Source of the DNA: Escherichia coli
GTDB lineage: Bacteria; Pseudomonadota; Gammaproteobacteria; Enterobacterales; Enterobacteriaceae
NCBI RefSeq assembly: GCF_024700885.2
Contig: NZ_CP117016.1
Strand: one strand, 5' to 3'
Length of the DNA stretch: 64,000 nucleotides
In this document: in pieces, positions 22,001-25,443 of the stretch
Numbering within the stretch: the stretch's first letter is position 1
How the letters are laid out: each line of letters opens with the position of its first letter
The notes under the pieces: model-generated
Database searches by the model: none
Told to the model about the DNA's origin: nothing
Seen by the model: the letters and a program-made list of their open reading frames with translations, nothing else
Translations under genes and position numbers: made by a program

Positions 22001-24010
22001 AAAGTTAGTTCAGCAGCCTTCAAGCTGAAGGATTCTGATATTGTCTTCTTCCGTACAAGACCGACTCGTGCATCTTATCAGAAACGTAAACGCGCACTGG
22101 AACGTCTCCTAGATCGAGAAAGTGTGCTGCCTGACTTAATTGACTTGTTCGATCCATCCTGCAAACAGGCGGCTCAAAATTATGGTATCACTCTCAGCGA
22201 TACCGATTTTGCCAGATACGACCGTGAAGATCAGCACGGAAACAAGATCAGTCTGAATGAACAGCAAAGAAAGGCGTTTAACAAACTGGTCAATAATGGC
22301 CCTCTCTCCCTGCTTCAGGGGCCACCGGGGACCGGTAAAACCGAGTTCATCGCGGCCTTTGTTCACTACCTGATCGAGAAACAGAATACCAAACGCATTT
22401 TACTGGTCAGCCAGTCACACGAGGCTGTGAATACAGCGGCCGAGCGTATCAGAAAGCATTGTTCCCGGCTTGGTACAGAGTTGGACGTTGTCAGGTTCAG
22501 CAACCGAGAGGGAGCCGTTTCCCCTGGCTTAAAAGATGTGTACTCACACGCAATCACAACAGAGAAGCGCGAACTCTTCAATGCTGAAATTAAGTACCGT
22601 GTTGAAGCATTGAGTGAAGCTATTGGTCTGGAGCCGGGATTTATTTCGGGTGTTGTTCTTGCAGAGCTCAATTTGTTCAGACAAATCGATCACCTTGAGA
22701 AATTGCTCTATCAGGTTAACAATTTAACGGATTCAAATGAGAGCAATGAACTGAAAGATATTGCAGTCGAACTCGATTTTTCCATCCGCTCTAAGCTGAG
22801 TCAGGAGTATGGGATTAACTTGGACAATGGCGTGAAGGTCTCAGCAGCAAAAGACATTCTGATTTCCAAGCTATGTACAGAGTATGGTGTCAGACCTGAT
22901 GAGGCAAGACGAGTAAAAGCATTAGCTAAAATATCCCGTGATATGCAGGATGCTATGTCGGGAGAGCGAGTGAACCTGGACGAGTTTTATTCGCGCTCCA
23001 GGCAGTTAGTGGCTGGCACATGCGTTGGTATTGGACAAGGGCACATTGGCATTCAGGAGAATATCTATGACTGGGTGATTATTGATGAGGCGGCGCGCTC
23101 GATTTCAAGTGAGCTGGCCATTGCAATGCAGTCAGCCCGGCGTGTCCTGTTGGTGGGTGACCACATGCAGCTTCCTCCATTGTACTCAGATGCCCACAAG
23201 GCGGCATTAGCGAGGAAGCTGGGTATCAATAACTCCCGCACTGAAATTGACGAGGTATTACGAAGTGACTTTGCCCGAGCCTTCAACTCTGCTTATGGTG
23301 CGCAGACGAGTGCAGCTTTGATGACCCAGTATCGTATGGCTCCACCGATTGGTAATCTCGTATCGAAGACGTTTTATGACGGGAAGCTTCTGAATGGAGT
23401 ACGGGCAATTCCGGATGTCTATCAGCAAGCTCCGGAAGCGTTACGTAGCGTTGTAACCTGGCTTGATACTGCTAATCAGGGCCACCGAGCACATCATCTT
23501 GAAGATCGCGGAACAAGCATTTACAACCGATGTGAAGCTGACGAGATTATTTCTGTTCTTAAACAGGTGTCAGAGAATGAAGAATTTGTAGCTAAGCTTT
23601 CAAAACTTGTTAGCAAAGATGAAGCCGCTATCGGCGTGATATGTATGTATGCCGAACAAAAGCGGTTACTCCGTCAGAAATTCAATCAGGAAATCTGGAG
23701 CGAGGGATTTAAGGACATTGTTAAAATTGACACTGTTGACAGTTATCAGGGAAAGGAAAATCGGATCATTATCCTGTCACTGACGCGTTCGGATAAGCAG
23801 CATAGCCCAGGTTTCTTACGCGTTCCAAACCGTATAAATGTCGCGATGTCACGCGCAATGGATCGACTGTTGATTGTGGGTAATGCCGATATCTGGAAGG
23901 GAAACAATAAAGAATTGCCATTAGGCTACGTTGTAAGTTATATGGCTGAGCGAGGTCAGGAAGCTGGATACAGGTTCCTCTCTGCTCAGCAGGGAGGCAA
24001 AAAGAAATGA
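19040..24010 (+). CDS. Giant multidomain protein: NERD-like nuclease domain, two kinase-like modules, Upf1-like SF1 helicase
   Basis: 1656 aa; RBS aaggag 7 nt upstream of TTG start. NERD-like N-terminus (EFDLVIVTHCNVIIVELKDW..GDTWF). Two kinase-like catalytic-loop regions (KIAHRDVADHSLWI..DVHTLGLVAWHLFSG and HLHGLGVSHGDIHPGNVIF..LIDIPDFS..SPEY). Helicase motifs: Walker A GPPGTGKTEF, motif II WVIIDEAARS, motif III LLVGDHMQLPP, motif VI VDSYQGKENRIIILSLTRS. Confidence 0.85.
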   Translation: MEVEMWDGGLQEQEVLAIEKIKAAFSVNVSKPDKPFRSGSISEQLKSYGFIGNEMFPWKGYAGFRFVEAKKEGEFDLVIVTHCNVIIVELKDWNHQPVTARGDTWFKGDKNMGRSPVSVTRSKKFMLDKKLKRLVDRFTNKGYIPIVHFFVVMTGNADFSALPEEQRRHTISLKDFLKFADRGSFNNYFKPHPATKVLNKDFHLFDDLFLGPQTAPKALRVNGYEANDMIFEHPKKVYREYLAKSEISTNSEALLRVWNFRNITGTKANTPEGRAQIVSREREVLQHINHQNRDLYNHCLRSLTSFQKDEVTAEYSEVYEVPPGHVRFNEFIGKYGKNFSDMDRLNVVKLLIAKFSDLHEMKIAHRDVADHSLWISPSKEVALSNFISAYHQPAGTVGDYRKLLSVGAVHVKDMLDKGELTPFQQDVHTLGLVAWHLFSGMRMSPKSLEKVQDNMLNSQHWYSSVLRDAVAAKFTSATEFFDALKQAEPAGKDIPTFDDTELDPYRHAINHARQYPEDDGFQFQVETVDKEVYISKGRLVKAWLNVGGQGYDPSINFQVLKFLKQVERLSSVKTTYLPQIREFGIASKSSSLYMVTDQVQGETWDKIAVPDDEKIDLIGKFVAAVEHLHGLGVSHGDIHPGNVIFETQSRLLFLIDIPDFSPSGDEPKNHSYSPEYIDNCTSFERDNYAVMKMSCELLGMSWGLESDIYPTIANAIRAELEDPVFGFKDLGRFKKAIDSNDLVPEQDLIEITAGNADEIISILPDNGHLYVKVKSNPKAPAEVNVTFSGIGGSFTAVFNKDQKTLVHGFRPRARVTIRKQDIDESQFEIDTGIKIIPGSPQDLSALTVLLNEEESFARAIELIAATEDVQVQEPLTLQLKDTFARLDKQTLEPSLREVLEIPTVKLWRAILDTETESYPNIEISGEVVPVADAHGELLLPYSADVDPLGAFRSSDEVEALQVDQEGVERFIGEVSLKKSELKEIRLVKVSSAAFKLKDSDIVFFRTRPTRASYQKRKRALERLLDRESVLPDLIDLFDPSCKQAAQNYGITLSDTDFARYDREDQHGNKISLNEQQRKAFNKLVNNGPLSLLQGPPGTGKTEFIAAFVHYLIEKQNTKRILLVSQSHEAVNTAAERIRKHCSRLGTELDVVRFSNREGAVSPGLKDVYSHAITTEKRELFNAEIKYRVEALSEAIGLEPGFISGVVLAELNLFRQIDHLEKLLYQVNNLTDSNESNELKDIAVELDFSIRSKLSQEYGINLDNGVKVSAAKDILISKLCTEYGVRPDEARRVKALAKISRDMQDAMSGERVNLDEFYSRSRQLVAGTCVGIGQGHIGIQENIYDWVIIDEAARSISSELAIAMQSARRVLLVGDHMQLPPLYSDAHKAALARKLGINNSRTEIDEVLRSDFARAFNSAYGAQTSAALMTQYRMAPPIGNLVSKTFYDGKLLNGVRAIPDVYQQAPEALRSVVTWLDTANQGHRAHHLEDRGTSIYNRCEADEIISVLKQVSENEEFVAKLSKLVSKDEAAIGVICMYAEQKRLLRQKFNQEIWSEGFKDIVKIDTVDSYQGKENRIIILSLTRSDKQHSPGFLRVPNRINVAMSRAMDRLLIVGNADIWKGNNKELPLGYVVSYMAERGQEAGYRFLSAQQGGKKK

Positions 24011-25443
24011 TATCTGATAACAAAGTTACCTATCATGAGGTTGACTTCCTGCTGCCAGCACAGAGGTTTAACATTCAGTTTTCCTATGTTTCCCAGAAGG
24101 GGCTGCCATTTATCCGGGAGTTTGTGCTGAGACTTGTTCATGTAGCTTCGATGAGCAAAGCACAAATAGCAACCTATTTCGGCCTGACCCACCGTGAGAC
24201 AGAGGAGGCGATTTCCGATCTTGTGCAGCGTGGCGAATTGACGCTCTCCTCAGACGGCAGACTGGCCTTAACAGACAAATCAAATGGCTATTTTTCAGAG
24301 GTTGGCGAGATACCGCATCTTTCAACTATTCAGGACAGTGGCTGTACTTTATCCTTTGATTTAGCCACATTTAGTTGCTTCAGCAACCAGGCTTTTCAGG
24401 ACCACTGGAGGGGAGGGGTAACATTAAAGGTTGATGACAACAACATTTCTCAAAGTGAGAAACTGGTTGAGAAGCACTTTCAATACCAGTTTAATCAAAT
24501 CCTGGATAAAGGTTACCTGTCTCACCTGCAGGTTCAGGTCGGAAAAGAACAACCTTCTATCTATACCGTTAATTCTGTTAATAAGCTGCGGCAAATACCA
24601 CTCCGTTTAACAACGGAATTTAAAATGGATAGCGATGGTAAGGCTGTCGAGCGTGAAGACTATGAACAGTTAAATAGTTCGGAATGTGTTCATGAGTTAA
24701 TGGCTGTTGAGATAGCCAGGTTATCACGGCATAACAATACCATGAGTATTTTTAAGGCCATGCAATCCATTAACGATGACCTTACGCTTAAGCTGTTTGA
24801 CTCTAAAACGAATCGACTTAATCCGTTGTTTATCAAAGATATGCAAGCACTGGAAGAATACTCGTCCTCAGGCAGAACGACTTTTTTAGGTCCGGTTTAT
24901 TCTAAAAACAACTGGGAAAAGCTGCAGAAAGCTCTGGCACCAGCGCTCAATCAGCGTATCAGAGATAAAACTGATTATGGAGGTAGCCCGTTCATCTGGG
25001 TGGCACCATCAGATCCCTACTGGTCAAAAAGCATTCGATTTATCTCAAGCCTGAGCAATTTTCTTAGCAAGTCGGCTACGAAGGATAAGCAGCTGTATAA
25101 ACCGGTGCTGTACGTACCTGTCCGGGATGCAGCTGATGCTCGGGTTGCCATACAGTGGAAGTATGAACTTGGGCAATTCCATGAGTACGCTAAAGGACTA
25201 GTTGAGGGGCTGTTAGATGGTAATGTTGAGATCCTTCATCTTGAGGATGAGTTATCTGCCGTTATCTATCATATTTCTCAACCCGAAATATTGCCTGTAA
25301 CGATGCCACTGGGCTTTATCACAACGAACAAAGAAACGGTTAAGATTATTGGTACTCTGGTTACTGAATATATCAAAGGCACCACTGGCTTTGATAAGTT
25401 TCATGACTGTGGCGCAATTTCGGCAATGATTAAGAAAGGTTGA
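24007..25443 (+). CDS. Hypothetical 478-aa partner protein, translationally coupled to the helicase gene
   Basis: ATG overlaps the upstream stop (ATGA, 4-nt overlap); N-terminal region [31 protein letters not shown] resembles a winged-HTH; remainder unassigned. Confidence 0.8.

Follow-up and report, generated by a model that had tools for sequence, protein, structure and literature searches.

The open reading frame (ORF) at positions 24007-25443 (+) of the window studied here, a stretch of 64,000 nucleotides from contig NZ_CP117016.1 of Escherichia coli, is, going by its sequence, the mkoB gene of a Mokosh anti-phage system (type I, SEC470 subtype). Our main finding is that the encoded protein, MkoB, is predicted to end in a fold of the phospholipase D (PLD) superfamily that lacks the catalytic motif of PLD nucleases, and that its partner MkoA, encoded directly upstream, carries a conserved nuclease-related motif in a NERD domain. 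We therefore lean towards a reading in which MkoA performs the cleavage and MkoB is a non-catalytic subunit, a pseudo-PLD adaptor or sensor.

The assignment to Mokosh comes from profile matches and from near-identity to a system that has been tested. MkoB matches the PADLOC profile PDLC03923 with 503 bits (E 1.9e-151), residues 3-472 corresponding to profile positions 4-452 of 454, and the protein encoded upstream matches the PADLOC MkoA profile PDLC03921 over its full length with 2212 bits. The features by which type I Mokosh is recognised operationally, i.e., hidden Markov models plus synteny, are all present: the MkoB profile and, adjacent and co-oriented, a kinase and COG1112/Upf1-like superfamily 1 (SF1) helicase, MkoA. 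The published definition also includes a PLD nuclease domain with HxKxxxxD in MkoB, and this the window MkoB does not have. The preprint table of Millman et al. (2022) lists SG199, a Mokosh type I system from E. coli SEC470, as verified anti-phage, and describes its MkoA (1652 residues) as 'Kinase-Helicase' and its MkoB (478 residues) just as 'HTH' (helix-turn-helix). The window MkoB is identical to this MkoB at 391 of the 399 residues in the stored part of the sequence that was compared (98%), and the first 399 residues of MkoA are 92% identical to SEC470 MkoA. Judged by this identity, the window gene is the SEC470 mkoB in another E. coli strain, and hence part of a known system for which protection against phage has been reported.

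An earlier note on this DNA, made from the letters alone, had proposed that the gene pair is a defence system and that MkoB is the orphan partner of a motor protein. The first proposal is borne out by the 98% identity to the verified SEC470 protein. MkoB is likewise a defence partner, but hardly an orphan, since the system had already been named and tested; the note's reasoning was sound, and what it rediscovered is a gene and a system already known and verified in a near-identical allele. In RefSeq, mkoB is still named 'hypothetical protein'. The 6.4-kb mkoA-mkoB pair is present in 352 of 5426 complete E. coli genomes (~6%), nearly always at an identity of at least 99%, and its annotations in this species are 'AAA domain-containing protein' and 'hypothetical protein'. 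Furthermore, Table S8 of Millman et al. puts SEC470 MkoB in a column headed 'PLD MkoB', whereas their table of tested systems has 'HTH' only. This column is one source of the blanket annotation of MkoB as a PLD nuclease.

Sequence searches with MkoB returned nothing significant in Pfam (query and 93 relatives), NCBIfam, PHROGs or the PDB (phmmer and hmmsearch). Our AlphaFold2 model of the full-length protein, calculated from a 93-sequence alignment, has a mean predicted local distance difference test (pLDDT) score of 94.2 and a predicted template modelling (pTM) score of 0.86. A second model was built for residues 96-478 from 37 orthologues of the genomic loci in order to remove bias from the winged HTH (wHTH); here, the C-terminal domain has a pLDDT above 90, and residues 96-215 are less confident without the N-terminal hairpin. 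In the full-length model, the protein is predicted to fall into three parts. The N-terminal module (residues 1-95; 24007..24291, +) consists of a beta-hairpin (7-31) and a wHTH (33-95), the latter with the three-helix bundle and beta wing of a MarR-like winged helix. It is the best-conserved part of MkoB and the only part in common with the PLD-bearing MkoB family. In the middle region (residues 96-285; 24292..24861, +), to which no fold could be assigned, strands 105-118 and 184-207 pack with the N-terminal hairpin, accompanied by helices. The C-terminal domain (residues 286-478; 24862..25440, +) is predicted to form a PLD-type alpha/beta sandwich. Its structural matches are TrmBL2 (value 9.1), NucT (8.7), F13 (8.6), FAM83B (8.3), the TrmB sugar-binding domain (8.3), a bacterial PLD (8.2), Zucchini (7.9) and Nuc (7.8), with phosphatidylserine synthase, BfiI, PPK, PLD4, SauUSI and NgoAVII next in rank. 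Residues ~286-478 are therefore best described as a single lobe of the PLD superfamily, in this case without HxKxxxxD (pseudo-PLD). Several of the top matches (TrmB, TrmBL2, FAM83) are themselves non-catalytic members of this fold.

The HTH-like segment that had been noticed near the N-terminus thus reappears as a winged HTH in the predicted model and its structural matches, and the statement that no catalytic domain can be assigned agrees with the lack of a catalytic Pfam domain or HKD motif throughout the family. The remaining ~380 residues had been called unplaceable. This is true of sequence matching, but the C-terminal ~190 residues can now be placed in the PLD superfamily by structure. 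The wHTH is acidic across the family, with a mean net charge of -2.5 for the whole element, -2.0 for the third helix and -1.7 for the wing (helix 3 of the query has -3). This casts doubt on a classical DNA-reading HTH and favours a role in protein contacts, although nucleic-acid contacts of another kind would be compatible with it too.

The loss of the catalytic motif extends to the whole family. Neither MkoB nor any of the 93 aligned relatives has the pattern HxK(x)4D(x)6GSxN, none of these 93 matched a PLD family of Pfam when they were scanned one by one, and relatives of the 478-residue type have no precomputed Pfam domains either. Only G295, E408 and G436 are invariant among the 93 sequences, and there is no conserved His-x-Lys; Y186, W331, W339, P434 and H422 (88%) are nearly so. 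E408 (codon 25228..25230, +), invariant in 93 of 93, lies on strand 407-412, and H422 (codon 25270..25272, +), replaced mostly by Tyr in the remaining sequences, lies on the hairpin partner strand 416-423. According to the order of secondary-structure elements and the predicted hairpin register, as opposed to coordinates, strand 407-412 would be the HxK strand and strand 416-423 the GSxN strand, such that the side chains of E408 and H422 would both project from one face of the sheet. The other conserved positions follow strand 1 (G295, Y298, N302), follow strand 2 (W331, P334, W339) or lie on strand 6 (P434, G436), and they match topologically the sites of invariant residues in the genuine PLD lobes of the 602-residue MkoB family introduced below. 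The old active-site face thus seems to have been retained as a functional surface with a different chemistry.

Millman et al. describe Mokosh in their text as the combination of an RNA helicase with a PLD nuclease, and the other verified type I system, from E. coli ETEC H10407, does have a 602-residue 'HTH-PLD' MkoB in which the motif HAKIIVCD...GSCNW is visible. All listed matches among the relatives of this protein carry Pfam PLDc_2 (PF13091). A pairwise comparison of the 478- and 602-residue proteins gave no similarity. When the two families were compared using hhalign, only residues 10-126 aligned (E 2.4e-4, probability 44%), a stretch that comprises the beta-hairpin, the wHTH and the next strand, and the PADLOC profile PDLC03922 matches the window MkoB with 49 bits over residues 12-248. 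The C-terminal 193 residues, in contrast, gave an hhalign probability below 3% with each PLD lobe of the 602-residue family, as compared to 97.9% in a control of lobe against lobe. The partner proteins differ as well. In three of three loci with a PLD-type MkoB, MkoA has 1153-1231 residues and helicase domains but no NERD on record, and the H10407 MkoA opens directly with its kinase. In all cases examined, an MkoA with NERD is paired with an MkoB that has lost HKD, and an MkoA without NERD with an MkoB whose PLD is intact. Beside this, a PLD-type Mokosh I locus of Pseudomonas aeruginosa has a separate gene for a 256-residue protein with NERD and a Top1-type zinc ribbon (L053 1415-2185) directly upstream of its short MkoA; this gene may encode an accessory nuclease or be a neighbour by coincidence. 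A review table already gives NERD for type I Mokosh. The pseudo-PLD fold, its correlation with NERD in MkoA and a relative fused to double-stranded RNA-binding motifs (see below) are unreported in the literature searched.

The window mkoA (19052..24010, +; 1652 residues from the RefSeq start) matches PDLC03921 as described and encodes, in this order, NERD, two kinase-like domains and an SF1 Upf1-like helicase. NERD, which is related to PD-(D/E)xK-type nucleases, spans residues 53-135 (19208..19456, +; Pfam PF08378, E 8.4e-7) with the motif GEFDL...ELKxWN. Kinase-like domain 1 (residues 270-447; 19859..20392, +) has AHRD..HS.W and a weak Pfam Pkinase match, with PglW and MAD6 kinase models covering residues 57-460; together with NERD it resembles the N-terminal part of BREX PglW and the MADS kinase MAD6. 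Kinase-like domain 2 (residues 577-657; 20780..21022, +) has HGDxHPxN...DxxD and is found by Pfam Pkinase (E 8.5e-6) and by PD-T4-6 models. The SF1 (Upf1/DNA2-like) helicase (residues ~1050-1640; 22199..23971, +), with Walker A GPPGTGKT and Walker B IIDEA, matches the NCBIfam IGHMBP2-family helicase (E 6e-50) as well as the helicase segments of PADLOC MkoA and MkoC. The 'giant helicase' of the earlier note is a helicase indeed, but in full it is a NERD-kinase-kinase-helicase fusion. The NERD motif, both kinase motifs and Walker A/B are conserved at 93% or more in 29 MkoA orthologues.

The two genes are tightly linked. Direct reading of the sequence places the mkoB start codon ATG (24007-24009) on top of the mkoA stop codon TGA (24008-24010) in the overlap ATGA (24007..24010, +), just as had been seen earlier for the stop of a 1656-residue gene, and a Shine-Dalgarno sequence GGGAGG for mkoB lies 9 nt upstream within the 3' end of mkoA (23992..23997, +). 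The length of 1656 residues results from counting from the first TTG (19040), whereas RefSeq and Millman et al. start at ATG 19052, which gives 1652. The mkoB frame itself (24007..25443, +; 478 residues, ATG start) was confirmed, with the PADLOC match, the identity to SEC470 MkoB and the AlphaFold2 model behind it. A consensus scan revealed one sigma-70-like promoter candidate, TTGCCC-18-TATAAT (18898..18927, +; 10 of 12 matches), ~125 nt upstream of mkoA. It is the sole promoter-like site positioned to serve mkoA-mkoB, in a region where the number of such sites is not above chance, and the native-promoter fragment of SEC470 that was cloned by Millman et al. includes the same stretch. No excess of internal promoters or terminators was found in the mkoA-mkoB region by the same type of scan. 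mkoB is co-transcribed and translationally coupled with mkoA.

This arrangement is conserved well beyond E. coli. A locus scan with a 24-sequence MkoB alignment, taking one genome per species, yielded 45 loci, mostly in Gamma- and Betaproteobacteria and one in a metagenome-assembled genome (MAG) of Verrucomicrobiales; the most distant representatives sit on contigs too short to show neighbours. Pairing is strict, in that a full-length long MkoA lies directly upstream of MkoB in every locus with enough flank, except for three truncated copies. The distance from the mkoA stop to the mkoB start, taken in 36 loci, ranges from -8 to +15 nt, and values of -4, -1 and +1 nt account for 9 loci each (27 of 36). 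Such a conserved stop/start distance together with the synteny argues that the pairing is not due to chance, and with both kept in 36-38 loci, the idea that MkoB is the dedicated partner of a giant motor protein is well founded. The existence of MkoB apart from MkoA was considered and rejected, as no instance was seen in the loci examined. A housekeeping function was rejected as well, because the family is patchy and found in islands and on 152 plasmids. In the three truncated loci (L013, L024 and L040), only C-terminal parts of MkoA are found upstream (query residues 668/833-1648, 1092-1647 and 1015-1647, respectively), and these are probably decaying copies. Two further entries deserve mention. 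A MAG contig labelled Lachnospiraceae (L005, SFGN01000089.1, 7961 bp) encodes mkoA and mkoB proteins 100% identical to those of the window; in all likelihood it comes from E. coli and was mis-binned. An 817-residue protein of Rhodanobacter denitrificans in the AlphaFold database (A0A2W5JZK8, 'DNA2/NAM7 helicase-like C-terminal domain') matches the MkoB model over 475 columns, and is either a true fusion of the MkoA C-terminus with MkoB or the product of faulty gene calling where stop and start overlap.

The family of the 478-residue MkoB comprises 286 clusters at 50% identity and diverges down to ~20% identity. It is mobile: 152 of its records are from plasmids (mostly of Acinetobacter and Pseudomonas), and three come from a phage or prophage. 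Divergence is faster in MkoB than in MkoA, the mean identity to the window proteins being 44% versus 59%, and ~25% versus 40-45% at the far end. Within MkoB, the hairpin and wHTH are best conserved (57-59%), while the helical linker and the PLD-like domain are most variable (33-41%). We count this faster divergence of MkoB, most marked in its middle and PLD-like parts, as sensor-like behaviour.

Reviews up to 2026 still describe the mechanism of Mokosh as incompletely characterised. For the SEC470 subtype, we infer complex formation, the ligand and the cutting subunit as follows. The conserved N-terminal hairpin and wHTH module would hold MkoB on MkoA; since the PLD-bearing MkoB shares this module and no other part, the module probably docks onto MkoA. 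The variable pseudo-PLD domain with its E408/H422 surface may recognise a phage cue or gate the activity of MkoA, and this cue would most likely be RNA or an RNA-containing nucleic acid. The MkoA helicase would engage nucleic acid, and the MkoA NERD nuclease would carry out the destructive step, possibly under the control of the MkoA kinase domains. A precedent for a pseudo-PLD scaffold exists in FAM83, which anchors CK1 kinases (PMC6008594). With respect to RNA, one member of the family (997 residues; L050 8001-10994, P0221) has the MkoB core followed by two double-stranded RNA-binding motifs (Pfam dsrm, E 1.5e-10 and 9.6e-9). It is encoded in overlap with the stop codon of a 1625-residue NERD-type MkoA, beside a type I restriction system. 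An independent 996-residue entry of the AlphaFold database (A0A7C9G4N5, 'DRBM domain-containing protein') matches the MkoB model, too. More tentatively, the proposal can be widened to the whole NERD branch of type I Mokosh, where MkoB may be a dead pseudo-PLD adaptor that either detects an RNA or nucleic-acid cue from the phage or serves as an anchor for the MkoA kinase, the nuclease role having moved to NERD.

Several points weigh against an adaptor or sensor of RNA that leaves cleavage to MkoA. No experiment on an MkoB of the SEC470 subtype was found in the literature searched, and a 2025 preprint describes an unsuccessful attempt at purifying Mokosh type I. Millman et al. do report 'PLD active-site' mutations for Mokosh. 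The nuclease activity of the MkoA NERD domain is deduced from the conservation of its motif. An invariant Glu beside a conserved His on the presumed catalytic hairpin would equally be expected of an active site that had been repurposed, and the structural placement of these two residues depends on secondary-structure order and hairpin register. The fusion to double-stranded RNA-binding motifs occurs in one cluster at 50% identity and one AlphaFold database entry, and is a hint, not a trend. Finally, a preprint reports that T4 Alt and the DNA glucosylation of T-even phages help to evade a type I Mokosh of uropathogenic E. coli; if that system is of the same subtype, DNA rather than RNA may be attacked.

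The repurposed active site leads to the strongest of the rival explanations, namely that MkoB is still the nuclease effector and that a Glu408/His422 site in the PLD fold, possibly metal-dependent, cuts nucleic acid delivered by the MkoA helicase. The conserved residues G295/Y298/N302, W331/P334/W339, E408, Y421/H422 and P434/G436 follow strand 1, follow strand 2 or lie on strands 4-6, at the topological places of the invariants of the 602-residue PLD family, the invariant Glu is on the strand assigned to the catalytic hairpin, and Mokosh has been described as a helicase plus a PLD nuclease. However, PLD chemistry requires a His nucleophile, and there is no HxK; 12% of the members have another residue, mostly Tyr, in place of H422. 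Metal nucleases typically have a conserved acidic cluster, whereas this family has one invariant acidic residue. Given furthermore that several of the top structural matches are non-catalytic and that MkoA has a conserved nuclease motif of its own, we regard a nuclease role for MkoB as unlikely. The same structural matches invite a different thought. TrmBL2 and TrmB are among the best of them, the alignment with TrmBL2 covers 199 residues of the full-length model including both the wHTH and the PLD-like domain, and one relative of the PLD-type MkoB is named TrmB by a source. MkoB might accordingly be imagined as a TrmB-like regulator whose wHTH binds DNA and whose PLD-like domain binds a ligand, controlling its own operon or host genes upon infection. 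We find this improbable, because the wHTH is acidic, which is atypical for a DNA-reading helix, and because mkoB is the distal, translationally coupled cistron of the very operon it would regulate. Also, MkoB is never apart from MkoA in the loci examined, and its N-terminal module is common to PLD-type MkoB with an intact catalytic motif. Neither the query nor any of the 93 relatives matches the TrmB or Regulator_TrmB families of Pfam, such that the resemblance is structural only.

By analogy to the FAM83 pseudo-PLD domain and CK1, MkoB might also serve mainly as a substrate for the MkoA kinase domains or as their anchor, with phosphorylation switching the complex on or off in place of nucleic-acid sensing by MkoB itself. 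No conserved Ser/Thr cluster came to light, though no search aimed at one was made. This is an analogy at 5-8% sequence identity, and taken as an explanation in its own right we give it little weight; it overlaps with a non-catalytic adaptor or sensor subunit and does not exclude it.

The genomic surroundings of the pair are those of an island. In E. coli strain MLI114, mkoA-mkoB lies in an island adjoining phoH, together with a tyrosine integrase, an IS1 remnant, a YfjI/DUF3987 gene (a match to the phage 'DNA helicase' family phrog_2373), an inovirus-type Gp2 gene and a fragment of a primase pseudogene from a TOTE system. The latter, annotated by RefSeq as a frameshifted and shortened 'TOTE conflict system archaeo-eukaryotic primase domain' pseudogene (~18532-18867, +; L001 19493-19828), lies immediately upstream of mkoA, which suggests that an older conflict-system locus has either given way to the Mokosh pair or taken it up as an insertion. 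Between phoH and the integrase gene (10294-11496), just before the latter, is a gene for a DUF2726-domain protein (9163-9849, +) that has no PADLOC or NCBIfam match. The integrase gene also adjoins a 605-residue ORF (11683-13500, -) named 'hypothetical protein' in RefSeq; it has no match in PADLOC, NCBIfam or PHROGs, belongs to the cargo of the same island and could be a further defence or accessory gene. Elsewhere in the window, between putP and efeU, a 447-residue hypothetical gene (1388-2731, -) matches the phage families phrog_11707 (E 2.9e-21) and phrog_10109, both of unknown function, and nothing in NCBIfam. Downstream of mkoB follow a 637-residue 'enterotoxin' gene of RefSeq (25923-27836, -), malX, malY-like genes and, farther on, iro genes. 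The island in which the window lies carries both virulence-type and defence cargo.

How the window MkoB relates to known systems can be summarised by comparing it to its closest counterparts and to more distant relatives of its fold. SEC470 MkoB has the same length of 478 residues, matches the same PADLOC models and is likewise partnered with an MkoA of 1652 residues, and few substitutions separate the two proteins; its published annotation ends at 'HTH', to which the present analysis adds the pseudo-PLD fold. With the H10407 type, the window MkoB shares the N-terminal beta and wHTH module and the gene position after a kinase-helicase MkoA, and both types end in folds of the PLD superfamily (for the 602-residue type, on the basis of its PF13091 match). 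However, the H10407 type has two PLD lobes with an invariant HxK...GSxN and an MkoA of ~1200 residues without NERD, whereas the window MkoB has one lobe without the motif and an MkoA of 1652 residues with NERD. Type I thus splits in two, a short MkoA with an MkoB of two intact PLD lobes on the one hand, and a long NERD MkoA with a single motif-less lobe of the PLD fold on the other. If MkoB of the latter is indeed non-catalytic, the definition of Mokosh as 'RNA helicase + PLD nuclease' and the analogy to Zucchini and MOV10L1 would not fit this verified subtype. The split itself calls for caution before the 'PLD nuclease' annotation and the piRNA analogy are extended to every MkoB match from DefenseFinder or PADLOC. 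Among more distant relatives, the PLD-family nucleases Nuc, NucT, Zucchini/PLD6 and BfiI have HxKxxxxD...GSxN, which MkoB lacks. TrmB and TrmBL2 (PDB 5bpd, 2f5t, 3qph) are stand-alone archaeal regulators, whereas MkoB is the operon partner of a defence motor protein and has an additional beta-rich middle region and an acidic wHTH. The FAM83 DUF1669 domain (PDB 5lzk, 4urj) resembles MkoB in having a PLD fold without PLD activity, and it anchors a Ser/Thr kinase. FAM83 is confined to vertebrates and has kept a partial HKD-like motif, whereas MkoB has none, and at an identity of 5-8% the anchoring of a kinase by MkoB would be a conjectural parallel between the two.

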